64,000 nt of DNA from the IMG/VR virus record IMGVR_UViG_2684622652_000002, one strand, 5' to 3'. The position numbers and the translations under genes were made by a program. Positions 4,664-53,664 of this stretch are shown piece after piece. Source of the DNA: an uncultured virus (IMG/VR IMGVR_UViG_2684622652_000002). Its lineage: Duplodnaviria > Heunggongvirae > Uroviricota > Caudoviricetes. Each line of letters begins with the position of its first letter. Within the stretch, counting starts at the first letter, position 1. Below the pieces are notes generated by a model. It was not told the DNA's origin, did not search any database, and saw only the letters and a list, made by a program, of their open reading frames with translations.

Positions 4664-5252
4664 ATACGCTACGGTTGATTTTGACCAGATTAATGAAAAA
4701 GGCTTAAAAAGCCTCATAACGGCGATTAACAAAACGGGAACAACGGTACTTGAAGTAGAGTCCAGTAACCGAGCCACAACGAAAGATGGAGTTAAAGTTA
4801 AGACGGCGAAGCTGGTATTGCAGGATGGTCAGATGCTGACAATTCAGGTCAACGATACTGGTGATATTTCCTCCGTTAAACTGAATGGGCGTGTTATTCC
4901 TAACGCACAATCACCTGACATTAAGTCGTTGGGTGCGGTAATGGGGCGCGCAGCGCTTAATAATTCTCAAAAGTTTCGTAAATCATTGGCTGCAAAAGCC
5001 AAGCGTGTGGCAAATCCTGTCGATAAAAAGCCCGCAGTAAAATCCAGCTTTCAACAACTCCAGGAAGCGAAAGCCCGTAATGCACAAGTAACACAGAATT
5101 ATCGCTCTATTCAAAATCAGGTTGCGGTAAATCAGCAAAATATTACCGATCTGCGTGGCCGGATGGACAAAGAAACAGCACGGTTAAATAACGCCAGAGC
5201 AAAAAATATTGAGCTGAAAACACGATTGAAAAATCTGAAGTCGGGGAAATAA
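4650..5252 (+). CDS. hdf: Hdf, homologue of a DarA fragment
   Basis: Size and position before darA; coiled-coil C-terminus. Confidence 0.85.
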   Translation: MTGNKYATVDFDQINEKGLKSLITAINKTGTTVLEVESSNRATTKDGVKVKTAKLVLQDGQMLTIQVNDTGDISSVKLNGRVIPNAQSPDIKSLGAVMGRAALNNSQKFRKSLAAKAKRVANPVDKKPAVKSSFQQLQEAKARNAQVTQNYRSIQNQVAVNQQNITDLRGRMDKETARLNNARAKNIELKTRLKNLKSGK

Positions 5253-5253
5253 T

Positions 5254-7203: not shown

Positions 7204-7559
7204 AACTCTCCGCACTGGAATTGATGGACCTGAGCGATAAGCTTGATGAGTTAATGTCAAAGGCATCCGGCGCTACCGGGCTGGATCTCCTGGATATCAG
7301 CGACGAAATTGATCAGGTAATGCAACAGATGGGATACGGCGCAGGGGCTGACACTAAACCGGAAGACCCGAAGCCGTCCGACAACGTGCCGCAACTGGTT
7401 GCCGATTTTCTGGCGGATAAATTCCTGAAGCAAAGCCCGGATGCCTTTATCAGCACGCTCCAGGATCTTAGCCAGTACGTTGATGTTTATATTGACCTGG
7501 GCCAGGTAAAGGAACACACGGCGTCATGGATTGATGCCAACGTAAAAGAGGCAGCATAA
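7200..7559 (+). CDS. ddrA: DdrA
   Basis: 119-aa acidic protein directly after darA. Confidence 0.82.
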   Translation: MKLSALELMDLSDKLDELMSKASGATGLDLLDISDEIDQVMQQMGYGAGADTKPEDPKPSDNVPQLVADFLADKFLKQSPDAFISTLQDLSQYVDVYIDLGQVKEHTASWIDANVKEAA

Positions 7560-7571
7560 GGCGACACAGGG

Positions 7572-10568
7572 ATGAGTTTACGCGAACAGGTGGCAATGGC
7601 CACCAGCATGACCACGCTTATCGAGCTGCTGAAGAACTTGCCCGGTTACGGGCGGGTTTCATATGTGGTGACGGCGAAAGGGGATGAGGTGAAAACGGCG
7701 TTTGACATTGTTGACGCCGCTGCGCTCCTTGTTTCCAATACACTGGATGGGAAAATCAATCCAGAGTATCCCCAGGAGTTGCAGCCGCGCGATCGTACAC
7801 GCGCTTCGAGCCTCCTTCAGGTTAACCAGATATCCAAAGACCTACGCCCGGCGCAACTGACTGATTCCGGACTGTCGAGCCACGGGGCACCAATTATCGG
7901 TGAAGATAATGCCGTTGAATCCGGGAACGGTCGCACGATGGGTATCATCAAAGCCTATCAGGACGGTAGCGCCGACAAATACCGTGACTACCTTATCGAG
8001 CATGCGGCAGATTACGGCCTGAGCGCAGAAAAGGTCTCCTTGATGGCGGCGCCGGTACTGGTTCGCCGGCGTCTGACTAAAGTAGACCGCGTGCAATTTG
8101 CGAAAGATTCCAATATCTCCGATCTCCAGGAAATGGCAGCCAGCGAAAAGGCTTTCGTAGATGCAGACAGCATTACACCGGGCATGATGGCGCTGTTTAA
8201 CCCGTCCGAGAGCGGTGATCTCCTGAGTCGCAGTAATGATGCCTTTATCCGTGGCTTTATGACGCAAGTTGGCGCGACGCAGGCGGCAGGACTGGTGACT
8301 GAGGACGGCAGACCAACCAGGCAGTTGGTTGATCGCGTCCAGAACGCTATTTTCGCTAAAGCCTACAAAGATGCTCGCCTGGTACGCATGGTGGCAGAAG
8401 AACCGGACCCGGACATGCGTAACGTGCTGACAGCGCTGAATGCCGCCGCTAGCGATTTTGTACAAATGCAGGCTATATCCGGAGAAGCTCATAAGCAGGC
8501 AGTAAACACCCTTGTTGAGGGCATCGAGACAGTTGATTCCCTGGATAAGAAGGCACTTTCAGCGCTCAAAGATGCGGTGGATCTGGTGCGGCAGGCGAAA
8601 GAATCCGGACAACATATTAGTGACGTGATCGCGCAGGGCGATATGTTTCATGAGACGGAGCCCGAAGTAAAAGCACTGGCGCTGTTTATTGTCGCTAACA
8701 ACCGCAGCGCCAAGCGTATGGCCACCGCATTTAAGCTGATGGCGCAGCGTATCAATGACGAGCTACAACATCGGGGGCAGGCGCTGGGGGATATGTTCGG
8801 AGGCGCTGAGGTATCGCTTCAGGATATTCTACGCCAGGTTTCTGACCATCTGGAAAGCGAAGGCATGCAAGGGATAACCGGCGGTTTGTTTGAGGCGGTT
8901 GGTGCCGAAGGCCAATACCCAAACATCGGGCCGTACATCGGTATGCTACTTCGTAGTGCGGATAACGTTAACGATCTTATCAACGTGGTTAAGCTCGTAT
9001 CTAAAACCGAACCTGATGACAACAATGACATCATTTCGCTGGCGCTGTATCTCAATCTCAATGCCAGTCAGGTATTTAACTGGAGTAAGTCGCTGGGCAT
9101 AAGCAAGAACGCAATTGCTTCACTGCACCGCATGGCTGTACACAGCACCACTGCGTTTCAGGAGATCAAAGCAGCGATACAGAACCACGAATTACCGCCA
9201 GCGATGGATTGGGATAAGGCGAGGACTTACCGCGTAAAAGAGTTCCTGGACGCTACCAGCACTACGGCCCCATTGAGCATGGTTATTGATCGCCTCAACA
9301 GGTTGTTTGGTGATCACACCTCCTTCCGGGATTTAACATTGAGTGAGCTGAAAGAGGCTTCCCGCGCGTGGGCGCATGAGCGTAGCGATATCCAGCCAGG
9401 ATTCTTGCCAAAATTCGATAAAGCTCTCTCCCGCGCCGAAAGCCCACTGAAGGTCATGAAGGCCTTCCGGGCGGTCAGTAAAGCCATTGCTGAAAAAGCA
9501 CGCGATATTACTGGTGTTATGGACACGGGTAAGGCTTTTGCATCTGCGGCAGGGTTGGATAAGCCGATCACTATCAAAGATAAAGCGCAGGGTTGGTTGG
9601 CAGATTTTGAGTATGTGTTAGATCTGGATGTTGTGGACAACGACACCCGCAATCTGCTGGATTTTTATATAGATGAGATCAGCAAAGTTATTGATGACGA
9701 AGAAAAGCTGGGGAGATATCTCCATGATGCCATTCATCAAAATAACATCTCGCTCTATGCCTCATTGCGCGCTCTTCAGCGTACAGCCGAGAATAAATAT
9801 GGCGAAAACGATAACCGCGCGCTGCGCCTAATGGACATTGTGAACTCTTTCAGGAATGGCCTTTCGCCGAGCCTGGTAGATAAGATTCATGGCAATGTAC
9901 AGGCTGCATTTGAATCGGTGCTCTCGCAGTCGCCGGTCAATGACGAACTGGCTGAAGCATGGGTATCAGGAGTGCAACTTGATGAGCCGCTGATGGAAAA
10001 GTTTAGTGGGTCGCATGAGTGGCGGGCGCCCATTGATATTAAGCGCGAGTTGAAGAGCATTTATCGGCTAACCGGTGGCAAGCTCGGCACACTGAAACGC
10101 ATCGTTCACGAAGATGGTGTGCGCGCGTATGCTAACGCAAGAGGAGATATTGTGTTGGATGGTTCCAGTGACGATTTGCATGTGCTTTGGCATGAAGTCG
10201 GGCATCATCTGGAATATTCCAATCCGGCGTTGCTGGAGAAGGCCCGCTCGTTTCTGAAGTCGAAAAGCCTTTCTTCCTCCGTATCCTACGGTAATTTGGG
10301 GAGCCGCCGGAAACCAGAATACTATATCCGGACATCACTTAGCCGTAAATATGCTTCAAAAATTTACATGAGCAATAAAGTTAACCCGTCTGGCCGCATG
10401 TCTTCGGAGAAGCCAAGCCTGATGAAGTGTAAAAGCACTGAGGTGTTTTCTATGGCGCTACAGCTTTACCGTGATAAGGAAATGACCGCAAGGTCTATCA
10501 TCAACAATGATGGTCTGCTTGAGCTGGCGCTGGGGTGCGCGAAGGAGTTACACGATGGAAACCATTAA
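7572..10568 (+). CDS. ddrB: DdrB: ParB-like N-terminal domain and C-terminal HExxH zincin-like domain
   Basis: ELQPRDR and VESGNGR ParB-like motifs; HEVGHHLE; synteny. Confidence 0.85.
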   Translation: MSLREQVAMATSMTTLIELLKNLPGYGRVSYVVTAKGDEVKTAFDIVDAAALLVSNTLDGKINPEYPQELQPRDRTRASSLLQVNQISKDLRPAQLTDSGLSSHGAPIIGEDNAVESGNGRTMGIIKAYQDGSADKYRDYLIEHAADYGLSAEKVSLMAAPVLVRRRLTKVDRVQFAKDSNISDLQEMAASEKAFVDADSITPGMMALFNPSESGDLLSRSNDAFIRGFMTQVGATQAAGLVTEDGRPTRQLVDRVQNAIFAKAYKDARLVRMVAEEPDPDMRNVLTALNAAASDFVQMQAISGEAHKQAVNTLVEGIETVDSLDKKALSALKDAVDLVRQAKESGQHISDVIAQGDMFHETEPEVKALALFIVANNRSAKRMATAFKLMAQRINDELQHRGQALGDMFGGAEVSLQDILRQVSDHLESEGMQGITGGLFEAVGAEGQYPNIGPYIGMLLRSADNVNDLINVVKLVSKTEPDDNNDIISLALYLNLNASQVFNWSKSLGISKNAIASLHRMAVHSTTAFQEIKAAIQNHELPPAMDWDKARTYRVKEFLDATSTTAPLSMVIDRLNRLFGDHTSFRDLTLSELKEASRAWAHERSDIQPGFLPKFDKALSRAESPLKVMKAFRAVSKAIAEKARDITGVMDTGKAFASAAGLDKPITIKDKAQGWLADFEYVLDLDVVDNDTRNLLDFYIDEISKVIDDEEKLGRYLHDAIHQNNISLYASLRALQRTAENKYGENDNRALRLMDIVNSFRNGLSPSLVDKIHGNVQAAFESVLSQSPVNDELAEAWVSGVQLDEPLMEKFSGSHEWRAPIDIKRELKSIYRLTGGKLGTLKRIVHEDGVRAYANARGDIVLDGSSDDLHVLWHEVGHHLEYSNPALLEKARSFLKSKSLSSSVSYGNLGSRRKPEYYIRTSLSRKYASKIYMSNKVNPSGRMSSEKPSLMKCKSTEVFSMALQLYRDKEMTARSIINNDGLLELALGCAKELHDGNH

Positions 10569-16843: not shown

Positions 16844-19800
16844 ATGGCAGACATATCTGGTGGAGTTTTCTCTTGTAAAAGTATTAGCGAGATTGTTCGA
16901 TTTATTAGAGCAATTTCAATGCGTCGGCAACCCGTATCTTTCGGGGTAAATAAGGTTGAGGGAAAGAGTTTCGACAGGCTTCGCAAAGAGGCGAATGCAA
17001 AAGCGGTTGATTTGCTTAACAGCCTGACAGATGGGGCAGAATTAACGGACGAACAGCGGCAGACACTCGCTGGTTATACCGGGGAGGGGGGAATTGGCGG
17101 TTCTGTTTCCGAATACTATACGCCGCAGCCGGTGGCAGAGGGTGTATGGGAAATAATGAAACTCTACGGTGCCGACGTGGGAAATACACTGGAACCGTCT
17201 GCTGGCACTGGCGTATTCAATGAAACGAAACCGGTCGGTACGGTAATGACAGCAACGGAGATTAGCACCGTTTCCGGCAGGATAAATAAGCTTTTGCACC
17301 CGGAAGATAGCGTCCAGATTTCTCCCTTTGAGCAGTTGGCAGTCAGTACCCCGAATGACACCTTCGATCACGTCGTTGGCAATGTACCATTCGGCGGGCG
17401 CGACAATACGCGCAACATCGATAAACCGTACGCTGAAGAAACCGACATGGGGTCGTACTTCATGTTGCGCATGCTGGACAAGATTAAACCCGGTGGCTTT
17501 ATGTGCGTAATTGTACCGCCATCTATCGTTTCCGGCACCAACATGAAGCGGCTCCGCCTGCGCCTTTCCCGAAAAGCTGAGTTTTTAGGTGCGCACCGAC
17601 TCCCGACCGGCACCTTTGATGCCAACGGCACCAGCACCGTCGTTGATGTCGTTCTGATGCGCAAACACCCGAAAGAGATGGCCGATAGAGTTGCACAGGC
17701 GGAAGAAAGCACGCTGGAAGCCGCGAATGTCCTTTGGCCAACGTTTATCACTGGCAAATGGTTTGAGCGCGACGGTCGCCGGTTCGTCCACGGTACGCAG
17801 GAAAAAGGCTTTCAGGGACGCATTGAAGTACGCGCTGATGGGCAGATCGATAATCTGGCGCTCAAGGCGAAGCTAATTCATCGTTTCGACAGCCGTATCG
17901 ACTGGTCAATGTTGGATATTGATGAACCATCACCAACTGCTGATGTGATTGATGAAGGTGAGATGCGCCTGATTAATGGCGTGTGGCATAAATTCGCGGG
18001 CGGTCGCTGGATTGAGGCCGACGCGGGTAAAGAGTTGGTAATCGACAACGAACGCTTTGGCGCGGATAGCTGGGAAGCACTTCAGCGTAACCTTTCTACT
18101 GCCGAAGGCCGCCTGGGGATGACCTTTGACCAGATGGCAAATGTACGGCAGCAGTACGCCAGCTCGCTAAGCGATGACCAGGTTCAGATGGTGGACTGGA
18201 TTGGCAGCCAGCCTGAGAAATACCGCACCCGCCTCTATCGTGGGGCTATGCTCGGTCGCATGCTGATTGAATATCAGGACATGAAGGCTGCCGGGCATAA
18301 CGAAGATGATATTGAACAGCGCCGGTTGTCACTGGCGGCCAAAGTTCAGGCTGAGATTGACCGCTTTGGTAATCCGGGGCGCGGCCCGATCGCAAAACTT
18401 TCCGGTGCTGGCGCCCGTGCCTGGTTCGCGTTCCGTGGGGCAATTAAGCTTGATGGTTCTATTTCCGATGAACTGACCGGAAAACTGGTGACACATGATG
18501 CCAGTGCAAGCTACGACTCCACCAGCTATCAGGACACATTACGTCACCTCTACAGTGATCTCACGCGCGATCCCGTTCAACTTGAGGATTTCCGCCAGGC
18601 ATTCACAGGAGATATTCCCGCCAGTGATGATGAATTGCTTGATCTGCTGGCTAACACGCCGGGCATCGCCGTTTCACCATATGGCGGCATTGTGCCGTTC
18701 GCCCGCGCCACCAGTGGCGACATAAATGAGATCATTGCACCTAAGCAGGCCTTTCTCGCCCAACTGCCGGATGGCGCGGTAAGAAATAACGTTCTCAACC
18801 AACTGGCGGCTATTGAGGAGAAACGCCTTAAAACCCCGGCGGAAAATATTCGTTTTAAACTCAACAGTCGCTGGTTTGACCGCTCGGTCATACTGGAGTT
18901 TTTGCAGGAGAATGGTTATCCGGATCTGCGCTATGTCCAGTCTGTTCAGATGGAAGGCGACGAAATGGTGTCCGAAACGTATCACGGCGGAGACGGCCTC
19001 TTTGTTGGTCATCGTTATGGTGTGGTGCAGCGCAAGGACAAAGAAACCGGCGAGATCCGCTATGAGTGGGACAAAAAATCTGGCGATAACGCAACGGGAT
19101 TCCCGGCGCAGTTGGAGAAATACCTTAACGGTGCGCGCATAGGCGGGAAAGATAGCGCGACTGCGAATGGTTATCGCGAGCAGATGGCGCTGCTGGAAGA
19201 ACAATTCAACAAGTGGATAAAAACCCATGACCGCTATGATGATCTGGTCGCCAAATACAACGACATCTTCAACAGCAATATTCCGTATGAGCATTCCGGA
19301 GATTCTTTAGGGCTAACCGGGATCAGCGGCAAGCGTCTGCCGTTTGATTACCAGAACAGCGAGGTCCGTCGTTTATCAGAAGATGGGCGTGGTATCCTGG
19401 GATTTGGGACCGGCTTAGGTAAAACCACAACTGGCCTGGCGCTGGAGGCATTCAACTTTGAGAACGGACGCTCTACGCGCACCGCGTACGTTGTGCCAAA
19501 ATCCGTGCTGGAAAACTGGTATTACGAGGCGAAGGACTTCCTGAGCGAGCAGGCCTTCAGTAATTACCTTTTTGTCGGTCTTGACGTGCTAATGGATGGT
19601 GATCAGATTCGCCAGGTCCCTGTACTCGATGAGAACGGTAAGCCGGTAATGAATGCCGACGGCACGCCAGTGATGCGCGACGGACTCAAGCTGGCAGATG
19701 AAGCGACCATAACGGCCCGCATGAACGCGATCCCGCACTCCAACTATCGTGCAGTAGTGTTTACCAAAGAACAGTACGCCCGCATCCCGCTACGCAATGA

Positions 19801-22800
19801 AACAGTGGACGAACACGCGCAGGATATGCTCATAGATTTCGTGGCCGCCGGTCGCGTGTCCAGCGCGATGGAGTCCGACTCCCACCGTAAAGAAGCGGCG
19901 CGCCGACGCGTGCTTTCCGAGTATTCAGATACCGGCACCGAGAAGGCCGAGAAATACCCGTATTTCGAAGATATGGGCTTTGACAGCGTGATCGCCGACG
20001 AGGGTCATAACTACCGCAACAGCTACAAAAATGGCCGGGAGGCCTCCCAACTGGCTTATCTTCCGACCAGTGCTGTAGCGCAGTCGGCTCGCGACATGGC
20101 GATCAAAAATGCCTATCTGATGAAGAAGAATGGCGGGCGCGGGCCGGTGATGTTGACGGCTACACCGATAGTTAACACTCCGATTGACGCCTACAACATG
20201 TTGTCTCACGTCCTGCCAAAAGAGTTTTGGCAGAAAATGGGCATCTTCGGGCCAGATGACTTTGTGAAATTCTTCGGCAAAACGCGCCTGGAGACGGTCC
20301 AGAAAATCAGCGGCGAAGTCGAAGAAAAAATGGCGCTGGTGGGCTTTGAAAACCTCGATGCGCTGCGCGGCATTTTCCACCGTTGGACGACGCTGAAGAC
20401 AGCGGAAGACGTGAAGGACACAGTAGAGATCCCTGAACTGGATGAACGCCAGCAGGATGCGCCACTTACCGATGAGCAACTGGCGGCTTATGAGGAACTG
20501 CGCAAACAAGCCGAGGCGGCAGCGAAAGCCAACAATGGAATGGCCACCATTGAGCAGGAGGACGGGACCACTACCGAGGAGAAAGCACGCCCGATCTTCT
20601 CCATCATCCGTGACATGGACCGTGTTTGTACGGATATGGATCTGTATCACCACAGAATTACGTATCGTTTCCTGCCGGAACACGCCGATGCGGTACAACA
20701 ACTGGCGGACAGCCTGCCGAAACAGGCCACCAGCGAGGATGACGACAGCGATGAGGCAGTGACACAGCAGGTGCAATATTCGCTGATCGACAAAGGCGAA
20801 TTTATCCAACTCCAGGTGCCGGAGGCGTTCGAACCCGAAGTGAATAAACGCCTGGCAAAGTTCGGTATTGACGAGCGTACCGTCACGCATCCGGTTACGC
20901 CGAAGTACGCGAAGCTAATCGCTACACTGAAGGAGTTCTTCCCGCAAGGTAAGCAGATCATCTTTACCGACGAGAAAACGCAGCACCAGAAGCTGAAGCG
21001 CATTATATGTAACGCACTGAATATCGACCCGTCACAAGTTGGTATTCTCAACGCCCAGACCGTTGCCGACGCTGGTAAATCTGGCAAGAAACTGAAGGCT
21101 GTTAAGCCACCGAAAGACCTTCCGGATGAACCTACCGAAGCGCAACTGACAAAATACAATGAACAGATGGCCCTGTATGATGCCTATATTGCGCAGCAAA
21201 ACGAGATGTCGTTAAGCGGGCTGGAGAAAATCGCCGCCGATTTCCAGGAAGGCCGTACCCCGATCATCATCTGCAACAAAAAAGCCGAGGTAGGTATTAA
21301 CCTGCATCGCGGCACAACCGACATCCATCATCTTACGTTGCCGTGGACTCCGGCGAGTATCGCGCAGCGTAACGGTCGCGGCGCCCGCGTCGGCTCCAAC
21401 CGCGCCAGCGTGCGTGTTCACTACTACTGCGGTAAAGGTTCTTTCGACGAGTACCGCCTGAAGACGCTGAAGCGCAAGGCGGGCTGGATCTCCGATATTC
21501 TCCGTTCCGATAAATCAGAAATGGAGAATGCCGACGCCAACGACATGATAGAAATGCAGATGTACACCGCCAAAGATGACGGCGAACGTTTGGCGATGAT
21601 GCAGGTACAGATGGATAAGGCTAAGGCAGCGCAACTGGCGCGCCAGAAAGAGCAGGCCGGTGTTGACCTGCAAAACTATGTCAAGGCGCAGCACGCCGCC
21701 GGCGAGGATGTGGAGGCGCTGGCCGCGCAGCTGGAAACCAGCAAAAACGAGCTGGAAGAGGTGGTAGCAGAGGTGGCCCGGTATCGTCAGTTGGTGCTGG
21801 CCAAAGCGGCAGAAAACGAAGAGTGGAAAGCGCGCTGGGGCAGTGTTTACAGCAGCGACCGTCTCCAACTCTCTCAGTATCGCAACTCGCTTAAAGCGGC
21901 GATTCGCCGTAAAGCCGACCTTACCAGCGCGATCAGCCAGCGCGAGAAACTGCTGACGCGCACCAAAAAGGCGGCGACGGATATCAAACGTCTGCGTCCG
22001 CTGGTGGAAGATGCGATGAGCAAAGGCCTGCTGAGTGTCGATCCTGATCTCATTAACCACGCCAAAGATTTTCTGGTGATTAACGACCAGTCCTGGCGCG
22101 TGGGGCAGTATTACGAGAACAACGGCGATATCGTTCGCATCAAGGCGTTGGACTTTGACAGCCAGCGTGCTGACGTCGAGGTGATTTTCTCCAGCAAAGG
22201 CACCCGTTCAAGCTCCTGGCCGGTGCGGTTGCTTCAACAGCAGGTTGACGTAACCCCGGATGAAGCGGCGGTTATGGGTAAAATCAGCGGTGGCGTGTCC
22301 ATCGCGGGGATTAACGATCTCATCAGTCGCGACGACTTCTACCGTTTCCAGCAGCGCGGTATGCTGAAAATCACCGACTCCTATGCGATGCAGAACACCG
22401 AGCATGGCTACTCGATGGAGTTTGTCAGCAGCTCCGATACTGTGCAGAACGCTGTTTATCCGGACCGTACTGATGGCGCGCTGAAGTCGGCGATCGCGAA
22501 GTGGGCGCTGGGCTACCTTGCCGCTGGTCAGGGGTACAAAATCAGCAGTGCCGAGTCGTTTTTAACCGAGCTGTTTGGCAGTAATTACCGTGACGTGATC
22601 TCTTCCTACGGTGACGCACTTTCCCCTGAAGATATTCAGGAGCGTATCGTGGCCGAGATCGCCAAACTTCCGGCGAAATCCCCGGATGGTTCAACGCGTA
22701 ACGGTGATTCTGAGGTGGAGGTGGCCAACGCCATCTTTAACAGCTATCCGTTCCGCGCGTCCGCTTATGAGCTGGGTACGTCAGAGTTTGGCGCAATCAG

Positions 22801-23608
22801 TGTCTACAGCAACAAAGCGGAGATTAAGGCCGCGATGGATGCAACTAACGCGCGCATTGCTGCCGAGCGGCAGGCGAATCTGGATCATGCCGTTGAGGCG
22901 CTGGCGCAATCGTGGGTGACGGCAATCAAGGGAGCGGTAGCAACTGGAAAAATTACCCCTACAATTGCTGATGTTGTTAATGATGGTGCTAAATTCATGG
23001 ATGCGTATCGCAATGGCTCAATGCCGATGCCAACTGCATACGGCATGACTACCAATCATCCGACGTATAATCTGGTTTCCATGTTCGCCGATCTGGTGAT
23101 TCTGGATCTGGTGGAACTGAGCGAGGTAACGCCGACGCTGTTGAGCGCCCGTAAAAACTATCTCGACGTGCTGATTCGCGTGGCAGACGGGCTGCGGGCA
23201 CGCACAGACGAGCAGAAGGCGGCGGACGCTGACCGCATCAATCTGGCGCTGGGTAATATCACGGAAGAGGAGGTCGCCGCGCGTAACGCGCAGCAGGACG
23301 AGATAGCCACGGTGCAGGGCGACGCCACCAGTACCGCCCAGGCGCTGGGGCTCAACTACCGCGTATCGACCGCCGATCTCAAAATGATGTACGCGCCGAA
23401 GTTCGCCGCTGGCGAGGTGTTTGGACTACAGGAGGCATCTGGTCAGAAAGGCGTATTGTTCCGCGCCAAAGACGAGTTGAAAGATAAGTTCAAAGCGCGC
23501 TGGCTGCCAGCGAAAGCCAAGAATAGCGACTTCCCCGGCAACTGGTGGATCATCGAAACTAAACACAACGCAGCGGACGTGCTGGCCGTTATCCAACAAT
23601 ACGCATAA
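16844..23608 (+). CDS. darB: DarB: N6-methyltransferase plus SNF2-like helicase antirestriction protein
   Basis: 2254 aa; LEPSAGTG and GNVPF MTase motifs; GTGLGKT, DEGH and QRNGRGAR helicase motifs. Confidence 0.95.
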   Translation: MADISGGVFSCKSISEIVRFIRAISMRRQPVSFGVNKVEGKSFDRLRKEANAKAVDLLNSLTDGAELTDEQRQTLAGYTGEGGIGGSVSEYYTPQPVAEGVWEIMKLYGADVGNTLEPSAGTGVFNETKPVGTVMTATEISTVSGRINKLLHPEDSVQISPFEQLAVSTPNDTFDHVVGNVPFGGRDNTRNIDKPYAEETDMGSYFMLRMLDKIKPGGFMCVIVPPSIVSGTNMKRLRLRLSRKAEFLGAHRLPTGTFDANGTSTVVDVVLMRKHPKEMADRVAQAEESTLEAANVLWPTFITGKWFERDGRRFVHGTQEKGFQGRIEVRADGQIDNLALKAKLIHRFDSRIDWSMLDIDEPSPTADVIDEGEMRLINGVWHKFAGGRWIEADAGKELVIDNERFGADSWEALQRNLSTAEGRLGMTFDQMANVRQQYASSLSDDQVQMVDWIGSQPEKYRTRLYRGAMLGRMLIEYQDMKAAGHNEDDIEQRRLSLAAKVQAEIDRFGNPGRGPIAKLSGAGARAWFAFRGAIKLDGSISDELTGKLVTHDASASYDSTSYQDTLRHLYSDLTRDPVQLEDFRQAFTGDIPASDDELLDLLANTPGIAVSPYGGIVPFARATSGDINEIIAPKQAFLAQLPDGAVRNNVLNQLAAIEEKRLKTPAENIRFKLNSRWFDRSVILEFLQENGYPDLRYVQSVQMEGDEMVSETYHGGDGLFVGHRYGVVQRKDKETGEIRYEWDKKSGDNATGFPAQLEKYLNGARIGGKDSATANGYREQMALLEEQFNKWIKTHDRYDDLVAKYNDIFNSNIPYEHSGDSLGLTGISGKRLPFDYQNSEVRRLSEDGRGILGFGTGLGKTTTGLALEAFNFENGRSTRTAYVVPKSVLENWYYEAKDFLSEQAFSNYLFVGLDVLMDGDQIRQVPVLDENGKPVMNADGTPVMRDGLKLADEATITARMNAIPHSNYRAVVFTKEQYARIPLRNETVDEHAQDMLIDFVAAGRVSSAMESDSHRKEAARRRVLSEYSDTGTEKAEKYPYFEDMGFDSVIADEGHNYRNSYKNGREASQLAYLPTSAVAQSARDMAIKNAYLMKKNGGRGPVMLTATPIVNTPIDAYNMLSHVLPKEFWQKMGIFGPDDFVKFFGKTRLETVQKISGEVEEKMALVGFENLDALRGIFHRWTTLKTAEDVKDTVEIPELDERQQDAPLTDEQLAAYEELRKQAEAAAKANNGMATIEQEDGTTTEEKARPIFSIIRDMDRVCTDMDLYHHRITYRFLPEHADAVQQLADSLPKQATSEDDDSDEAVTQQVQYSLIDKGEFIQLQVPEAFEPEVNKRLAKFGIDERTVTHPVTPKYAKLIATLKEFFPQGKQIIFTDEKTQHQKLKRIICNALNIDPSQVGILNAQTVADAGKSGKKLKAVKPPKDLPDEPTEAQLTKYNEQMALYDAYIAQQNEMSLSGLEKIAADFQEGRTPIIICNKKAEVGINLHRGTTDIHHLTLPWTPASIAQRNGRGARVGSNRASVRVHYYCGKGSFDEYRLKTLKRKAGWISDILRSDKSEMENADANDMIEMQMYTAKDDGERLAMMQVQMDKAKAAQLARQKEQAGVDLQNYVKAQHAAGEDVEALAAQLETSKNELEEVVAEVARYRQLVLAKAAENEEWKARWGSVYSSDRLQLSQYRNSLKAAIRRKADLTSAISQREKLLTRTKKAATDIKRLRPLVEDAMSKGLLSVDPDLINHAKDFLVINDQSWRVGQYYENNGDIVRIKALDFDSQRADVEVIFSSKGTRSSSWPVRLLQQQVDVTPDEAAVMGKISGGVSIAGINDLISRDDFYRFQQRGMLKITDSYAMQNTEHGYSMEFVSSSDTVQNAVYPDRTDGALKSAIAKWALGYLAAGQGYKISSAESFLTELFGSNYRDVISSYGDALSPEDIQERIVAEIAKLPAKSPDGSTRNGDSEVEVANAIFNSYPFRASAYELGTSEFGAISVYSNKAEIKAAMDATNARIAAERQANLDHAVEALAQSWVTAIKGAVATGKITPTIADVVNDGAKFMDAYRNGSMPMPTAYGMTTNHPTYNLVSMFADLVILDLVELSEVTPTLLSARKNYLDVLIRVADGLRARTDEQKAADADRINLALGNITEEEVAARNAQQDEIATVQGDATSTAQALGLNYRVSTADLKMMYAPKFAAGEVFGLQEASGQKGVLFRAKDELKDKFKARWLPAKAKNSDFPGNWWIIETKHNAADVLAVIQQYA
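16898..16914 (-). promoter_or_regulatory. C1 operator-like site inside the darB 5' end
   Basis: Minus strand ATTGCTCTAATAAATCG (15/17 consensus). Confidence 0.65.
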
Positions 23609-32897: not shown

Positions 32898-33115
32898 TCG
32901 TTAAATGTCTCAAAGATTGCGAAGGCTGGTGGACTGAAGGTGAATCGTACCCGGCTAATGTCGTTGCTGGCGGCTTTATTCAGGTTGGCGATGATGACGA
33001 TCCGAATGGCGAAGGCTGGAGTGCGGCGCCGATGGAATATCGGGAGGATGGTTCGATCCTGTATCAGGTCGGTGGTCTTGATGGTGAAGTCATTTTTGAG
33101 GAGGCAGCTCAATGA
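32894..33115 (+). CDS. Acidic hypothetical protein
   Basis: GTGA overlap with an AAGGAG RBS. Confidence 0.65.
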   Translation: MIVKCLKDCEGWWTEGESYPANVVAGGFIQVGDDDDPNGEGWSAAPMEYREDGSILYQVGGLDGEVIFEEAAQ

Positions 33116-33627
33116 GCAACCGAATTCGCAATGCTCAGGTATTCGACGCTCGCACCGGTGAGTATCCGGTAGATATGTACATTCGCTGGATCATTGGTGG
33201 TGAACTTGATTTTGATGCCAATTATCAACGCGAGTATGTCTGGGGGCATGAAGAGCAGCAGGCATTCTTAAACGTAGTGATTTCTGGTTTTCCTATCGGA
33301 TCAGTGGCGTTGGCAAAAGCACCTGACTGGTGTTCGCGTGAACTTCCTTACATCGAAGTTGTTGATGGCAAACAGCGCCTCACCACTTTGAAAAAATTCA
33401 TCACCAATGAGATTCCAATCATCCTGGCTGATGGTCCGCTTTACTGGCGAGACATGACTCGTGCAGAGCAATTGGCATTTGGTCGTCGCCCACTCCCTGC
33501 AATTGTGCTGGATGAAGTGACATACAAGGACCGCTTGGCTTATTTCATGGCGGTGAACTTTACAGGTGTTCCGCAAAGCGAAGAGCACAAGCGACACGTA
33601 ATGCAACTAATGGAGACAGCCCAATGA
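33112..33627 (+). CDS. Stand-alone DUF262 (ParB/Srx-like, GmrS-type) domain protein
   Basis: YQREYVW, GFPIGS, VVDGKQRLTTL motifs. Confidence 0.85.
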   Translation: MSNRIRNAQVFDARTGEYPVDMYIRWIIGGELDFDANYQREYVWGHEEQQAFLNVVISGFPIGSVALAKAPDWCSRELPYIEVVDGKQRLTTLKKFITNEIPIILADGPLYWRDMTRAEQLAFGRRPLPAIVLDEVTYKDRLAYFMAVNFTGVPQSEEHKRHVMQLMETAQ

Positions 33628-36119: not shown

Positions 36120-36976
36120 AAGAGAATCAAATCCGAGAACTGGTAAACGAGCTGCGTGATATTGCTATTGAGTATCACGGCACACAACAGTTACGTGAAC
36201 AAATTGCGCGTACAGTTCGTGCAGCGATAATTCAGGCCGGCAACTCTCCGGTGATCGGCATTGACATGGCATCTGAACCTGATCGCTCGGTGGATGTTCG
36301 CTACCTTGCTCCTCCTGGCTACGTGATGGTTCCTAAGGTGGTGACGCCGGAAATAGGTAACGCAATAAACGAAGTTGGTCAACGCTGCACATGTGGTAAT
36401 TGCTCGCAGCGATTATGGGATTTATTGCTTGCGTCAGCGCCGGTACAGGTAGATATTGAAATGCTGGCGTCTACGCTCAAAAATGCTCCGTTAGCACCGT
36501 CGGATAATCAGGGAAGGCCGAGAGCGCCAGTGGTGCCGCCCGCCATTGAGCCAGATTACAAGGTCATTAAAAGTATTCTGCCCACGGCCAACCCTGATGA
36601 ATATGCGTGCTGCATTGCTGCTGACATGTGGAACGCCTGCCGCGCCGCCATGCTTCAGGGTGCCGAACCTGTAAGTAATCGTGATGAGTTGCAGGTAATC
36701 GGCTGGTTGCGTAGTGATTACAACAGCGACGACAAACGCGACCCTAACGCTCCGTTGTTTATGCTGGGTAGCAATGACCCGTCAGAGACCTGGGGAGTTA
36801 AGTACATCCCGCTTTCTGGCAACTCTCCGGTAATTCCGAGTGGTTGGGTTATGGTGCCAAAAGAGCCAACTCAGGCCATGATTAAAGCGTGGCTATCAGA
36901 GGTTGCTAACTTTCGCGGTCATGCAGCCGGTTACAAGGCTGCGCTGGCAGCAGCACCACAGCGGGAGGTGAAGTGA
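36116..36976 (+). CDS. Mosaic Eaa-like accessory protein
   Basis: GNSPVI twice, WNACRAAML, GWVMVPKEPT modules. Confidence 0.7.
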   Translation: MKENQIRELVNELRDIAIEYHGTQQLREQIARTVRAAIIQAGNSPVIGIDMASEPDRSVDVRYLAPPGYVMVPKVVTPEIGNAINEVGQRCTCGNCSQRLWDLLLASAPVQVDIEMLASTLKNAPLAPSDNQGRPRAPVVPPAIEPDYKVIKSILPTANPDEYACCIAADMWNACRAAMLQGAEPVSNRDELQVIGWLRSDYNSDDKRDPNAPLFMLGSNDPSETWGVKYIPLSGNSPVIPSGWVMVPKEPTQAMIKAWLSEVANFRGHAAGYKAALAAAPQREVK

Positions 36977-37017
36977 TATTTCACCCTTCAAAATTGACCA
37001 ACATTTGCTTTAATTTA

Positions 37018-37037
37018 TACTGTATGAAAATACAGTA
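37018..37037 (+). promoter_or_regulatory. LexA (SOS) box overlapping a sigma70 promoter
   Basis: TACTGTATGAAAATACAGTA (CTG-N10-CAG); -35 TTGACC at 36994. Confidence 0.88.
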
Positions 37038-37052
37038 TTCATGGTGGCTAAA

Positions 37053-37319
37053 ATGGGTGGCAAAGTACCTAACTACCAAATCGTTTATAGAGACGAGACA
37101 CTCAATTATTTCAAGCCTGGAGGATATGTTTTCTTTCAAAGGCTTAAAGAATATGGCGGTGGTTATTGGTTAGGCAAAATTTACGAGGATGGATTCGAGT
37201 TTGTGCTTGAAAGGCCAACCTCATTAAGTGAGGGAATTAAGCATTTACTTGTTTTAAAATACGTTGAAGATGGGTATCTGGAATTTGTAGATGATATCGA
37301 CAACTTCAAGCTCCAATGA
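37053..37319 (+). CDS. Putative SOS-inducible hypothetical protein (88 aa)
   Basis: ORF immediately downstream of the LexA box; AT-rich. Confidence 0.7.
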   Translation: MGGKVPNYQIVYRDETLNYFKPGGYVFFQRLKEYGGGYWLGKIYEDGFEFVLERPTSLSEGIKHLLVLKYVEDGYLEFVDDIDNFKLQ

Positions 37320-37416
37320 TGCGATAGCTTTTAACATATCTCATGTGAAGATTATACGTTTGAATGTCATTCTGCACGTAGCTATCTGCCCATTACCAAC
37401 ACCTGAAGGATGACAT

Positions 37417-37692
37417 ATGTCAATTCAAACAACCCAGATAAAACTACTGGCGTCAGCGCTGGGTCTTAACAGAGCTGATATCGCAGAAATTATTGCGCTT
37501 GGCGGCGTCACTGTATCTAAAAGTCGCGTTGATAGCTGGTTGCGCAGCAGTTCTGCGACAAAAAATGCAACCGGGAATTCCGACCTACAGGGGCAACGAA
37601 TTAACCGGGCCGGCACGATAAAACCGGAAGAATTTCACGCTTTTTGTGTTGGACTGAAGCCGTGGCTTGACAGAGTGTCGCCAACGGAATAA
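37417..37692 (+). CDS. Small HTH-like protein (DUF1456/YehS-like) directly upstream of the CRISPR mini-array
   Basis: AAGGA RBS; LGLNRADIAEIIALGGVTVSKSRVDSWLR...FHAFCVGL pattern. Confidence 0.65.
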   Translation: MSIQTTQIKLLASALGLNRADIAEIIALGGVTVSKSRVDSWLRSSSATKNATGNSDLQGQRINRAGTIKPEEFHAFCVGLKPWLDRVSPTE

Positions 37693-37699
37693 TGTGTCC

Positions 37700-37840
37700 T
37701 TGTTCCCCACATAACGTGGGGATAACCCAGTAGTTATAGAAAATTGTTTTCTTACTGTGGTTTTGTTCCCCGCTTATGCGGGGATAAACCGGCTATATGG
37801 CCGCCTCATACGAAGTTCCCCATTTTATGGGGTAAGGTAA
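37700..37840 (+). CRISPR. Cas-less type I-E-like CRISPR mini-array (three degenerate repeats, two spacers)
   Basis: R1 TTGTTCCCCACATAACGTGGGGATAACCCA (37700-37729); R2 TTGTTCCCCGCTTATGCGGGGATAAACCG (37763-37791, 24/29 to the enterobacterial I-E repeat GTGTTCCCCGCGCCAGCGGGGATAAACCG); R3 AAGTTCCCCATTTTATGGGG (from 37813); spacers 33 and 21 nt. Confidence 0.85.
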
Positions 37841-37867
37841 AACAAGCGCTCTTCGGGGCGCTTGTTT
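37840..37867. terminator. Hairpin terminator closing the mini-array, likely bidirectional
   Basis: AAACAAGCGCTC-TTCG-GGGCGCTTGTTT. Confidence 0.8.
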
Positions 37868-37924
37868 GCTTATGGAGAGGTACAACATCATTCATTTTCC
37901 TCGGTTTTAAAACCGTATTCCCCT

Positions 37925-38497
37925 TTATCCGTTCTGCACTTCGCGGATGCGTTTAATCACGAATTCCCGAAGTTCGCTTAATGCGTTTGCTTCGTTCCCC
38001 AGCTTCGAGATAGACATCTCAAGCGCATTGCTATACCAGGCCAGTTGAGGCAGGTTCATGTGATTATGATTGAGGGTAGGTACAACCTCTACAGCCTCGT
38101 TTTTTTCCTGCGTCAACGAGAACATATTCATTTCTTCCATAGTGGCGAACTCACCCACAATAACCGGCTGGTGGTCTGGTCGCTGTGGCTGTCTAATGAG
38201 GACAAACGGCGGTTCTGTCGAGTACAGGAATGTCGGTTCAGCGCGTTTTTTTACCCATTCAGCTTGTTTCTTTTCTGCCAGTTCACAGGCTTCATCATAC
38301 GTATCAGCTACCCCCAAGAAAGAAGAGCGATCCCATGATCCGCCATTAAGACAACGCACCATAATTTTTCCGTCCGGTTGAGTAAGCCCATACGGATGGT
38401 CCCACCAGGCGTCGAGCTGGCTCTTAGAACGTTTGTCGTTTGGTGTAATGTCAAAATTTGCCGGCAGTTTAGGGTCCAATGGAATGCAGTTAGGCAT
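37925..38497 (-). CDS. Hypothetical protein (190 aa)
   Basis: Long ORF with RBS-like AAGGGA; converges on the terminator. Confidence 0.75.
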   Translation of the reverse strand: MPNCIPLDPKLPANFDITPNDKRSKSQLDAWWDHPYGLTQPDGKIMVRCLNGGSWDRSSFLGVADTYDEACELAEKKQAEWVKKRAEPTFLYSTEPPFVLIRQPQRPDHQPVIVGEFATMEEMNMFSLTQEKNEAVEVVPTLNHNHMNLPQLAWYSNALEMSISKLGNEANALSELREFVIKRIREVQNG

Positions 38498-38685
38498 AAA
38501 TATCCCTTTCCGAGAGTGTTATCCTCACAGAATACCCTGAAAAGGCTTTCTGATAACGTGAGATTCCAAACATAATTAAATAATTTGTTTGTGTTGACAA
38601 ACAAAAATGCAAGCCATTATATCGGCTACATGGCGCTAAAACAGCACCATCGCCCCGGCGCTCCGGGCACAAAAGGAAATCCATC

Positions 38686-38967
38686 ATGAAACCGATGCTC
38701 AAAGCTACCTTCTTTCCCCTCGAAAATGCCCCCTCCGTTGCAGCCAACACAGACATTACTATGCCGCTGCAAATTATCTCTGATTACATGCTGCGATTCA
38801 TGCACAACAACAAAGACGCCAAGCTTTTTGAAGCTAAAGAGCGGCTCGAAAAGAAGATTACCCTGTTTATTGCTGATGGGTACGACGAGCAGCGCCTACG
38901 CGGGGCGCTATCCGCTGCCACCAGCAGCCATACTCGCGAAGCCTTCCTCGCCGCTATTCAGTTCTGA
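38686..38967 (+). CDS. Hypothetical protein
   Basis: AAGGA RBS; alternative start at 38761. Confidence 0.6.
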   Translation: MKPMLKATFFPLENAPSVAANTDITMPLQIISDYMLRFMHNNKDAKLFEAKERLEKKITLFIADGYDEQRLRGALSAATSSHTREAFLAAIQF

Positions 38968-38969
38968 GA

Positions 38970-40058
38970 GTGAAAATGAAGAGCTTAATTATCATGGCCT
39001 GCTCTGCGACAAAGGGCAGGCAAGCAGCACCGGCAATGGACCTTTATCAAGGGGTTATGTATTCGACATTCCGTGCGAACGTTACTGCAACACGACCTGC
39101 CATTGTCATTCTGTCGGCAAAGCACGGCTTCATAGAGGCGGATCGCGTTATCGAACCCTATGAACAGCGCATGACTGAGGCGCGTGCCAATGAAATGATC
39201 GCCGAGCTGCCTGGTTTCGACTCAATAGAATGGCCCGCTGGTGTGCGCTCAATCCTGCTTGCTGGTGGGAAAACTTACCGGAAAGTGATGCTTGCTGCGG
39301 TCGAACGCCGTAAAGCACTTGGTTTGCTTGATAGCAACATCGTTATCGAACAAACGAGCGGCGGTATCGGTTATCAGCGTGCGCAGCTTGGAGCTTACCT
39401 GCGAAATCTTACACAGCGTTCTAACCGCACCAAACAGAAGCTAAAGCTCACGGAGGCGCAGGTCTTCACCCTCCGCCGGATGATGACCGGAACCAAATAT
39501 CAATTGCGGGGTGACGGTAAGAAAGCTCACGAAAACCGACCTTCGATAGAGGTTAAGCGCGGCCAATGGTTTCGTACGATTGACCCGATCAACGCACCCA
39601 GCGTGCCGGTGCTTTATCGCCTGGGGCTGGTGGACTTCGCCAATAATCGTGGTCAAGAACCCACGAAGTATTACAATGTGCGTTTGACTGACAAAGGCCT
39701 GAATGCCTTAGCGCCGGAGAACGACATGACCAAAGCCCCTGAGCAACACGACCCACGCAGCCTTAACCCTATGAAAGAAGCCGTACCCGCATCGTCGGCA
39801 ATCCATATGCGAGTCACCCCAGACCGCAAAAAGCGTTACGTTAACCAGGCAAGGGCTGAGGGACTGAAGCTAACCGACTGGATTCAGAAGCACATGGATA
39901 ACGTTTGTAATGATGCGGGGCAGCCTGACACCACAATGCACAAAGAGGTGGTGATCATCCACGGTTTGGGGCAGAAGCCCGGTAACGGTAAATGCGTGCC
40001 GTTTGAGGCGACAGAGGACAGTGGGCTGGCAAAAATGAAGGGCAAGGGTGATGAGTGA
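38970..40058 (+). CDS. Multidomain protein: DUF6884-like N-terminus and C-terminal ribbon-helix-helix-like segment
   Basis: IMACSATK...DLYQG...ILSAKHG...IEPYEQRM; IHMRVTPDRKKRYVNQARAEGLKLTDWI. Confidence 0.65.
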   Translation: MKMKSLIIMACSATKGRQAAPAMDLYQGVMYSTFRANVTATRPAIVILSAKHGFIEADRVIEPYEQRMTEARANEMIAELPGFDSIEWPAGVRSILLAGGKTYRKVMLAAVERRKALGLLDSNIVIEQTSGGIGYQRAQLGAYLRNLTQRSNRTKQKLKLTEAQVFTLRRMMTGTKYQLRGDGKKAHENRPSIEVKRGQWFRTIDPINAPSVPVLYRLGLVDFANNRGQEPTKYYNVRLTDKGLNALAPENDMTKAPEQHDPRSLNPMKEAVPASSAIHMRVTPDRKKRYVNQARAEGLKLTDWIQKHMDNVCNDAGQPDTTMHKEVVIIHGLGQKPGNGKCVPFEATEDSGLAKMKGKGDE

Positions 40059-52897: not shown

Positions 52898-53149
52898 ATG
52901 GATCTGACGAAACAACAAGCACAGGTACTAAGTCGCCTGGCGAACGGTGAACAGGTGTTTAAAGGGGAAGACGATGTATATCGCTGGAGCGGAGACGCTG
53001 GTGGACAAGTCTGCACTGCGCCAGTGAAAGCACTGTTGAAACTGAACCTGGTACGCATTGCGAAGGTAAAAGGTGGATCTGTTCTACGTTGCGCCGTTAC
53101 CGCTGCGGGCCGGGATTACCTGAAGAATTCATGGAATAACCAAAAATGA
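52898..53149 (+). CDS. Small winged-helix-like hypothetical protein
   Basis: GAGGT RBS; LTKQQAQVL...VTAAGRDYL. Confidence 0.65.
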   Translation: MDLTKQQAQVLSRLANGEQVFKGEDDVYRWSGDAGGQVCTAPVKALLKLNLVRIAKVKGGSVLRCAVTAAGRDYLKNSWNNQK

Positions 53150-53664
53150 GCTTTGATATTAAAGAATTAACTGAAATAGATCTGGAATCAGCCGATTTTT
53201 CTGATGCGCTTATGTGGCTGAAGGAAGGTAAGCGTGTTGCGCGTAAAGGCTGGAATGGCAAGGGGCAGTTTTGCTGGATGGTGCCAGAAGGTCAGTATCC
53301 GGCGCGAACGGAAGCTATCAAAGGACATTTCCCCGGCGATATGGTGCCGTATAGCGCTTACTTTGCCCTGAAGAATGCTCAGGACGCTGTGGTGCCGTGG
53401 CAGCCGTCTGTGGGCGACCTACTGGCAACGGATTGGAAGGTATATGATGTGCCGGTGTCAGACATTCCCCCCTACCAACTGCGCGTACGGGAAGAACTGG
53501 CGCAGGTGAGCGATCGTCTGAATAAACTCAATGCGTTTATCGACGGTGGCAGCGAGACATTTGCCAGCCTGCCTTGTATTGAGCAGTCCCGTCTGCGCGA
53601 GCAAGCCACGTATATGGCTGATTATCAGGACGTGCTGATCAGGCGTGTGATTGCATTTTCATGA
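53146..53664 (+). CDS. DUF2829/Tad2-like domain fused to a helical C-terminal domain
   Basis: DFSDALMWLKEGKRVARKGWNGKGQF...VPWQPSVGDLLATDW. Confidence 0.82.
   Translation: MSFDIKELTEIDLESADFSDALMWLKEGKRVARKGWNGKGQFCWMVPEGQYPARTEAIKGHFPGDMVPYSAYFALKNAQDAVVPWQPSVGDLLATDWKVYDVPVSDIPPYQLRVREELAQVSDRLNKLNAFIDGGSETFASLPCIEQSRLREQATYMADYQDVLIRRVIAFS

Follow-up and report, generated by a model that had tools for sequence, protein, structure and literature searches.

A cas-less type I-E repeat array on a P1-like phage-plasmid: a probable viral Cracr array downstream of a DUF1456-like gene

What purpose might a short array of CRISPR-like hairpins serve on a virus without cas genes? The question is raised by the IMG/VR record IMGVR_UViG_2684622652_000002, an uncultured member of Caudoviricetes, of which one stretch of 64 kb was analysed as a whole (hereafter the window; all coordinates follow its numbering). 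A first-pass annotation, made from the letters alone, had placed at 37700-37867 a type I-E mini-array with its own terminator and proposed that the phage feeds RNAs to host Cascade, whether to target competing elements, to repress a promoter, or to act as a decoy. The element is real, conserved, and structured, and we consider it probable that it is a viral type I-E Cracr array, one of the viral CRISPR RNA (crRNA)-like regulator-mimicking RNAs named Cracrs (Liu et al., bioRxiv 10.1101/2024.10.29.618823), by which host Cascade would be led to repress its own cas promoter and which would compete with crRNAs. The anatomy of the array, its conservation, the structural covariation, the homology of its second spacer to a cas-locus regulator, and its presence in an RNA library are observed directly.

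Three type I-E repeat-like hairpins lie on the same (+) strand at 37700-37840 and enclose spacers of 33 and 21 nucleotides (nt). Each unit begins with a 5′ flank, has a C/G-rich stem of 6 bp around a short loop, and ends in a 3′ part of 8 nt; the array is composed as follows:

37700..37729, + strand: psiR1 (R1), a 30-nt unit reading TTGTT CCCCAC ATAAC GTGGGG ATAACCCA, with a 5-nt loop and the variant 5′ handle ATAACCCA.
37730..37762, + strand: psiS1 (S1), a 33-nt spacer-like segment that reads TAGTTATAG from its second nucleotide.
37763..37791, + strand: psiR2 (R2), TTGTT CCCCGC TTAT GCGGGG ATAAACCG, a near-canonical I-E repeat with stem and handle ATAAACCG intact.
37792..37812, + strand: psiS2 (S2), a 21-nt spacer-like segment, homologous to a chromosomal CreR-like spacer.
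37813..37840, + strand: psiR3 (R3), AAGTT CCCCAT TTT ATGGGG TAAGGTAA, a degenerate terminal repeat with a 3-nt loop and no remaining handle.

Relative to the standard handle, that of R1 differs at two of eight positions, that of R2 is intact, and that of R3 is lost. The three hairpins announced in the first-pass annotation can be read directly and are not expected by chance: the pattern GTTCCCCN{7,9}GGGG has three matches in the 64 kb, all within the array on the + strand, compared with 0.00 expected from 100 shuffles, and R2 is the sole match in the window to the full repeat pattern with up to three mismatches allowed (0 expected). The 33-nt sequence quoted for spacer 1 proved exact. Likewise, R2 has the claimed intact handle, and base 1 and the four bases of the loop are its sole differences from the GTGTT...GCCA... 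repeat found in Salmonella enterica subsp. arizonae and further Enterobacteriaceae arrays; relative to the GAGTT-form repeat of an Escherichia coli array, one further 5′ difference is present. The predicted RNA fold of the array contains the three repeat hairpins together with a terminator hairpin (-78.2 kcal/mol, z = -5.6). An Rfam scan of 36500-39000 returned chance matches only (E > 3).

The same array, with both spacers, is present in three Salmonella plasmids, namely the phage-like pSTM_Phi and pSAN1-1735 and the conjugative IncF plasmid pCFSAN030538. In the four-way alignment of these plasmids with the window, substitutions are found in loops, flanks, handles, and spacers, each spacer showing single substitutions at most, and the stem bases are unchanged; a fifth carrier with a different backbone, in run X4, has three substitutions in S2. 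The comparison among relatives that had been suggested as a check, in which conserved repeats with variable spacers were looked for, thus turned out otherwise, the spacers being fixed within this lineage. Over 16 repeat units drawn from five arrays, 98.9% of the stem cells are paired, both-sided changes occur in four of the six stem pairs, and none of 500 shuffles attained the observed values, whereas sliding the partner columns as a control abolished the signal. Since the 16 units stem from related arrays, this covariation is evidence that hairpins are under selection and is not to be read as a probability. The compensatory stem changes claimed for R1 and R3 are therefore seen across arrays, and the view that RNA structure is selected rather than decaying is supported, as compensatory changes preserve the stems whereas the loops drift. 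The R2 loop itself (37774-37777) is TTAT in the window and ATAA in pSTM_Phi (L001; alignment columns 100-103), which is the exact reverse complement, and the difference looks like a hairpin-loop inversion via template switching instead of two point mutations.

A canonical adaptive type I-E array is ruled out by the unlike repeats, the unequal spacers, the recurrence of the same spacers, and the absence of cas genes and, in the collections searched, of protospacers. Whereas such an array has near-identical 29-nt direct repeats, uniform spacers of ~32 nt from mobile elements, and an adjacent cas operon or leader, the units here differ in stem, loop (5, 4, and 3 nt), and handle, the spacers measure 33 and 21 nt and are protospacer-less in the collections searched, and the array lies directly 3′ of a DUF1456-like gene. 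No Cas domain was found in 85 of the 86 open reading frames (ORFs) of at least 60 amino acids in the window, the single unscanned one being a spurious frame (37744-37956) that overlies the array, in agreement with the reported lack of cas genes.

Could the array nevertheless be offensive, turning the host Cas machinery against competing phages or plasmids, or silencing a host promoter other than that of cas? S1 lies between two processable repeats and has full guide length, and a non-cas target of it is conceivable. However, BLAST with the 33-nt S1 returned only the array's own copies among 72,556 plasmids, weak chance matches and no protospacer among 50,697 phages, and no protospacer in 5,426 E. 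coli genomes, while exact S2 is absent from both the genome-contig and the viral-contig collections. Furthermore, the spacers are near-invariant among the four carriers, and S2, at 21 nt, is too short for canonical I-E interference. This explanation is accordingly given hardly any weight, and targeting of competing elements, one of the three purposes first proposed, is unsupported. A seed scan found no self-target flanked by a protospacer-adjacent motif (PAM) in the window, and the same kind of scan over all fetched loci was swamped by chance matches. Separately, 74 matches of S1 in E. coli CRISPR1 arrays, in which 16 identical nt run on into the repeat end AACC, were rejected as artefacts because the 3′ end of S1 resembles the reversed repeat end.

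One resemblance of the spacers is to CreR, a chromosomal Cas-regulating RNA of type I-E loci (bioRxiv 10.1101/2023.03.10.532045). For spacer likeness, 1.86 Mb of fetched loci were scanned. In one Enterobacteriaceae genome (G380; loci L057/L173), the stretch between the divergent cas3 and casA genes contains a mini-array in which a spacer of 21 nt separates a degenerate repeat from a second repeat, and this spacer is identical to S2 at 18 of 21 positions, equal in length, and in register with the flanking repeats; in a BLAST search over 401 Enterobacteriaceae genomes, this site was the best match (E = 4e-10). By analogy, the mini-array has the build of the CreR cas-autoregulator as described for S. 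enterica. Two AAG-flanked sites 70-100 nt upstream of it match the first nine bases of its spacer except at position 6, and one of these putative operators matches 15 of 21 positions overall. At positions 10-12 and 20-21, the bases of S2 are those of the regulator rather than those of the operator, which argues that it was copied from a regulator gene and is not an acquired protospacer. Over its first nine bases, S2 matches the G380 spacer at seven (mismatches at positions 5 and 6), to be set against the preprint rule of at least nine PAM-proximal matches. With a degenerate S2/operator pattern, G380 was again the sole match in cas context among the 401 genomes; the other four matches lay in genomes with a size of 0.5-0.6 Mb, and one match was obtained with the reversed control.

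Another viral spacer shows a similar likeness, L203_S3 being identical at 18 of 20 positions, in register, to a Pectobacterium cas-locus mini-array. Host cas loci show further variants of this layout. In the cas3-casA region of E. coli M160133 (L190 4695-4730; also L054 and L016), a degenerate repeat lies on the strand opposite to cas3/casA, with the stem CCCTAC/GTAGGG and an intact ATAAACCG handle, followed by a spacer of ~33 nt and by another degenerate hairpin, overlapping the cas3 stop; judged from its layout, the region holds a CreR-like antisense mini-array. The genome of S. enterica subsp. arizonae (G002) is without a Cse1 match and retains just one or two residual I-E repeats at two places (L135 1500-1530; L084 10001-10090), so that its CRISPR-Cas locus looks decayed.

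For S1, the resemblance is to another kind of regulator. A second host example (L032) has a CreR-like spacer of ~31-33 nt that starts with TAG, and its AAG-flanked operator mismatches the spacer at positions 6, 12, and 18, and also at 10 and 20; positions 6, 12, and 18 are those left unpaired by I-E Cascade. Read from its second base, S1 begins with the 7-nt seed TAGTTAT, identical to the AAG-flanked operator in the cas3-casA spacer region of L032. Moreover, the CCCCAC/GTGGGG stem of R1 recurs in a cas-locus mini-array (L031), where 9 nt likewise separate the stem from TAG. By resemblance alone, S1 would belong to a 'TAG' class of CreR spacers or guides to cas-promoter operators.

A sister array connects the window with an array that has been studied experimentally. 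It is carried by a P22-like IMG/VR contig of 41 kb (L198), where it follows a homologous DUF1456-like gene. Its psiS1 has 24 nt and starts with TAG, which matches CreR of S. enterica ATCC 51960 (bioRxiv 10.1101/2023.03.10.532045); S1 shares seven of its first nine nucleotides with this psiS1. Its 21-nt psiS2 is one base off S2 (20/21), its psiR3 is the R3 unit of the window with the 3-nt loop, and the terminator is common to both. As the two arrays share the second half and differ in the first repeat and spacer, the array of the window is a recombinant sister. According to the preprint, the tested CracrIE array of the S. enterica Se29 prophage has a psiS1 of 24 nt and a psiS2 of 21 nt, and a one-nucleotide deletion in psiR3 results in a smaller loop and poor processing (bioRxiv 10.1101/2024.10.29.618823). 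The Se29 array matured in a Cas-dependent manner, restored T7 infectivity almost fully, and lowered casA mRNA by ~30%, while the anti-CRISPR effect was lost and casA transcription rose when its psiS1 was mutated; part of the Cracr effect was ascribed to competition for Cas proteins (bioRxiv 10.1101/2024.10.29.618823). A further array, on another virus record (L195 300-560; IMGVR_UViG_2772190835_000001), has four I-E-like units and three spacers after a promoter-like stretch containing TTGACA, and one of its units combines a CCCCAT-TTT-ATGGGG hairpin, as in R3, with a usable handle, ATGCACCG.

By analogy with the experiments on the Se29 array, which L198 fits by its description, the array in the window may be expected to be processed, to be loaded into Cascade, to repress a promoter, and to act as an anti-CRISPR. 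It would be transcribed either together with the DUF1456-like gene that precedes it or from a promoter lying in the 3′ end of this gene, and R1 and R2 would be cut by host Cas6e where each hairpin has its base. Two guides would thereby be released; in the first, the spacer of 33 nt would lie between the handle AUAACCCA and the R2 hairpin, and in the second, the spacer of 21 nt would lie between the handle AUAAACCG and an R3/terminator tail that is poorly processed. Both would load into host Cascade, which, through a partial match to cas-promoter operators, would bind without Cas3 cleavage and repress cas transcription; at the same time, the guides would compete with genuine crRNAs for Cas proteins, so that CRISPR immunity against the phage-plasmid is weakened. 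In its core, the proposal of the first-pass annotation that the array feeds RNAs to host Cascade is supported by the Cas6e-type hairpins, the conservation across backbones, and the homology to the regulator and to L198; promoter repression and a decoy effect both fit, and targeting of competitors does not.

Several points weigh against a Cracr array that represses cas. L198 fits the Se29 array in every point by text description alone. No cognate target of either spacer was found in the loci and collections searched, and G380 would not be the target of S2, since S2 mismatches the sole operator found at seed position 5 (15/21 by our own count). Cse1 is encoded by three of five Salmonella species representatives, with cas3 abutting cse1 in all three, and neither a creR nor a convincing S1 or S2 site was found in them at the cas3-cse1 junction or in the 1.7 kb upstream of cas3. 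No CreR homologue of S1 was detected at 70% identity or above in 126 host loci; S1 is of full length (33 nt), unlike the typical short Cracr spacers, and the register of its guide is uncertain because R1 has 9 nt, not 8, between the stem and TAG. RNA contigs that cover the array provide a hint only, as they carry no strand or true ends and may include DNA carry-over.

One alternative is a pure RNA decoy, in which the hairpins sequester Cas6e and Cascade subunits into useless complexes and the spacers play no role. Racrs, which are solitary repeat units that act as RNA anti-CRISPRs, include I-E examples that were tested and found active (Camara-Wilpert et al., Nature 2023, PMC10651486), R1 and R2 are good Cas6e-type hairpins by fold and covariation, neither spacer has a cognate target in the searches made, and the assignment of part of the effect to Cas-protein competition in the Cracr preprint points the same way. 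A decoy without use of the spacers does not explain, however, why S2 retains 18 of 21 bases of a chromosomal regulator spacer together with its exact length and is conserved among P1-like, IncF, and P22-like elements, and mutation of psiS1 in the array that L198 fits by description abolished the effect and raised casA transcription (bioRxiv 10.1101/2024.10.29.618823). We thus hold a decoy of this kind to be improbable and retain the Cracr array, with spacers that would guide Cascade to the cas promoter, as the preferred explanation.

Does the sequence around the array bear on its function? Three features flank or adjoin it:

37417..37692, + strand: DUF1456-like gene of 91 amino acids (aa), with a Pfam DUF1456 score of 25.5 bits (cut-off 27), named 'DUF1456 family protein' in plasmid records.
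37667..37695, + strand: candidate promoter read by eye, with -35 TTGACA at 37667-37672, a 17-nt spacer, and -10 TAATGT at 37690-37695.
37840..37875, no strand assigned: G+C-rich hairpin terminator with 10-bp arms at 37840-37849/37858-37867 and a short T-rich tail, recognised as inverted repeat I6 and in the predicted fold.

The array starts 8 nt past the stop codon of the 91-aa gene, and this arrangement recurs widely. The protein family comprises 43 clusters, all from Enterobacterales, and in 12 of 14 viral loci that encode relatives, two to five I-E-like repeat hairpins follow from 10-30 nt past the stop codon; of the other two, one ends 6 nt past the stop and is not assessable, and the other, which encodes the most distant relative (45% identity), has no hairpins. 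Loci with both gene and array include L198, L203/L207, L204, and L209-L216, the module being kept at 55-92% protein identity and the spacers differing by lineage (20-47 nt). The linkage is not universal. By tblastn, 1,051 plasmid records with a homologue were obtained, 994 of them from Klebsiella (~58% identity, mostly conjugative), and no repeat hairpins were present in the 840 nt after the gene in the single Klebsiella record examined (L224; 1 of 994); in the phage collection, tblastn found no homologue. In Pectobacterium atrosepticum pLPa1526 (L225 1030-1200), a longer DUF1456 protein is followed by a repeat whose stem halves, GTTCCCCATG ... CATGGGGATAAGTCG, lie ~90 nt apart, and then by a CCCCGT-TTT-ACGGGG unit, with an ArdK-family regulator gene adjoining; only broken units are present there. 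DUF1456 is not mentioned in the main text of the Cracr preprint (bioRxiv 10.1101/2024.10.29.618823), and a full-text literature search on 'DUF1456' returned unrelated papers only. The linkage of this gene to I-E mini-arrays is possibly new, and the gene is a possible marker for I-E Cracr arrays or a partner of them.

An AlphaFold model of the 91-aa protein (mean predicted local distance difference test score, pLDDT, 84.5) had no match in the PDB by Foldseek at E ≤ 0.001. With VIA-align, the best match was Aca10 (7xi5; Z 7.0, root-mean-square deviation 2.4 over 56 residues), and the top 50 were mostly helix-turn-helix (HTH) proteins of the XRE (Cro/C1) type with Z of 5-7, which is the range of common arrangements. 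A Cro/C1-type HTH fold is thus predicted from the model, and the likeness to Aca10, lying within that range, is suggestive. The protein and the array might together form a two-part anti-CRISPR operon not yet described, the protein being a new I-E anti-CRISPR protein (Acr) and/or resembling an anti-CRISPR-associated regulator (Aca), and S1 re-programming Cascade onto an uncatalogued class of operators or the promoter of another host defence. The protein would then parallel, by analogy, AcrIF24 for the I-F Cracrs, controlling transcription of the array or sparing Cascade loaded with viral guides, and S1 would be a full-length guide of unusual register (9 nt between stem and TAG) for operators outside the published CreR catalogue. 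We regard this two-part operon as unlikely, albeit conceivable.

The claim of an own terminator stood in part. A strong 10-bp hairpin does lie directly 3′ of the array, but its + strand T-tract is weak, a consensus terminator scan did not call the hairpin at 37840-37867, and its distribution marks it as a portable module. Facing it is a convergent ORF on the minus strand (37925-38497), with which the array probably shares the hairpin as a bidirectional terminator. The terminator region (37833-37878) occurs with 100% identity after unrelated genes on Salmonella IncF/IncI plasmids (L005 1501-1546; L006), and with 88-90% identity in P22-like phages without an array (L199, L200). L004 has retained no more than the final 20 nt of S2 together with R3 and the terminator, adjoining an IS200/IS605 transposase. 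In several related arrays (L204 1535-1575; L209-L216 at ~1042-1075), the terminal repeat hairpin runs directly into the U-tract, as ATTTTCTTTT or ATTTTCATTT, and the last repeat therefore appears to double as an intrinsic terminator.

As for transcription, the candidate promoter sits in the 3′ end of the DUF1456-like gene, its -10 element overlapping the stop codon, and a start near 37701-37703 is predicted from its position. It went uncalled in a consensus scan, since its -10 agrees with the consensus at only three of six positions. The layout TTGAnn-N17-TAnnnT recurs in L198, L207, and L209, where conserved codons (W-L-D ... stop) could equally explain it. In RNA-seq library X1, a 156-nt contig spans 37701-37854, from R1 to the terminator loop, leaving the upstream gene uncovered, and libraries X2 and X3 of the same study cover from 37803 and 37828 onward, that is, the terminator and the downstream gene; 37300-37700 is uncovered in all three, and gaps in contig data are not evidence of absence. 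The contig start at 37701 agrees with the candidate promoter, as a hint, given that contigs cannot prove a start.

These observations bear on whether the array is an inert relic, either a fragment of host CRISPR or creR captured by recombination and now decaying, or hairpins that merely terminate or stabilise the upstream operon. The degenerate R3, the existence elsewhere of the S2(3′)-R3-terminator piece and of the terminator alone as separate modules, and the terminator role that the last repeat may have in related arrays, where it directly precedes a U-tract, could all be so explained. By contrast, decay would not keep the stems by compensatory change while the loops drift, nor preserve gene and array together in 12 of the 14 viral loci at 55-92% protein identity, and an RNA library includes the region of the array. 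A relic is therefore very improbable, and the Cracr array remains preferred.

The carrier is a P1-like phage-plasmid, with 75% identity to P1 over darB-ulx-lxc and 83% identity to Cronobacter phage JK004 over part of the region. Pfam matches in the window comprise a Cin-type resolvase, LydB, DarA, DdrB, Lpa, a Cre-like integrase, Ref, a Tad2-like protein, a DnaB-like helicase, and a DarB-like protein of 2254 aa. The nearest virus record (G001), a fragment with 39% completeness, lacks the array region and is thus uninformative. Genes related to anti-defence or defence are abundant in the window (53146-53664, 4647-10568, 16844-23608, and 33112-33627), which counts in favour of a Cracr array: a fusion of Tad2-like and crAss001_48 domains, DarA and DdrB, a DarB-like methylase-helicase, and a protein with the GmrSD N-terminal domain alone. 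If the array acts as a Cracr array, RNA-based promoter-silencing anti-CRISPRs would extend to P1-like phage-plasmids and IncF plasmids of Salmonella; since such elements move genes between enteric bacteria, the blunting of I-E immunity would bear on the natural host range of plasmids and phages. The spacer-repeat-terminator cassette held in common with a P22-like prophage, behind a different first unit, would exemplify re-assortment of arrays to match variants of the cas locus, and the tight linkage to an HTH gene offers a simple genomic marker for further I-E Cracr arrays, together with a candidate protein partner.

Among known systems, Racrs resemble the array in being phage- or plasmid-borne mimics of CRISPR repeats that exploit host Cas proteins (PMC10651486), but a Racr is a single repeat without a meaningful spacer, while the array in the window has three units and two conserved spacers, one of them homologous to a regulator. 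In acr-aca operons, as in the linkage of AcrIF24 to CracrIF, a small HTH gene is physically coupled to an anti-CRISPR determinant; here, by contrast, the HTH gene comes first and the RNA second, and the protein lacks sequence similarity to any Aca or Acr. CreR has the same psiR-psiS-psiR layout, its 5′ handle is conserved, and it is complementary in part to an AAG-flanked operator close to the cas promoter (bioRxiv 10.1101/2023.03.10.532045), yet it sits within the cas locus and serves host autoregulation, whereas the array is located on a cas-less phage-plasmid and stacks two different spacers. The closest counterparts are the Cracrs. As expected of these, the array is borne by a virus or plasmid outside any CRISPR-Cas locus (P1-like gene set, copies on Salmonella plasmids) and keeps the Cas6e hairpins and the 5′ handle (predicted hairpins, covariation, intact R2 handle). 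Both the mechanism and a Salmonella I-E array with two spacers have already been described (bioRxiv 10.1101/2024.10.29.618823), where the variant of the window itself is possibly catalogued. Like the Se29 CracrIE array, whose spacers mimic host CreR, it is cas-less, lies on a Salmonella mobile element, and has three I-E repeat-like units, a second spacer of 21 nt, and a third unit with a loop one nucleotide shorter. It differs in its first spacer (33 nt compared with 24 nt), in an R1 with the CCCCAC/GTGGGG stem, a 5-nt loop, and the handle ATAACCCA, and in its carrier, which is a P1-like phage-plasmid instead of an integrated prophage.

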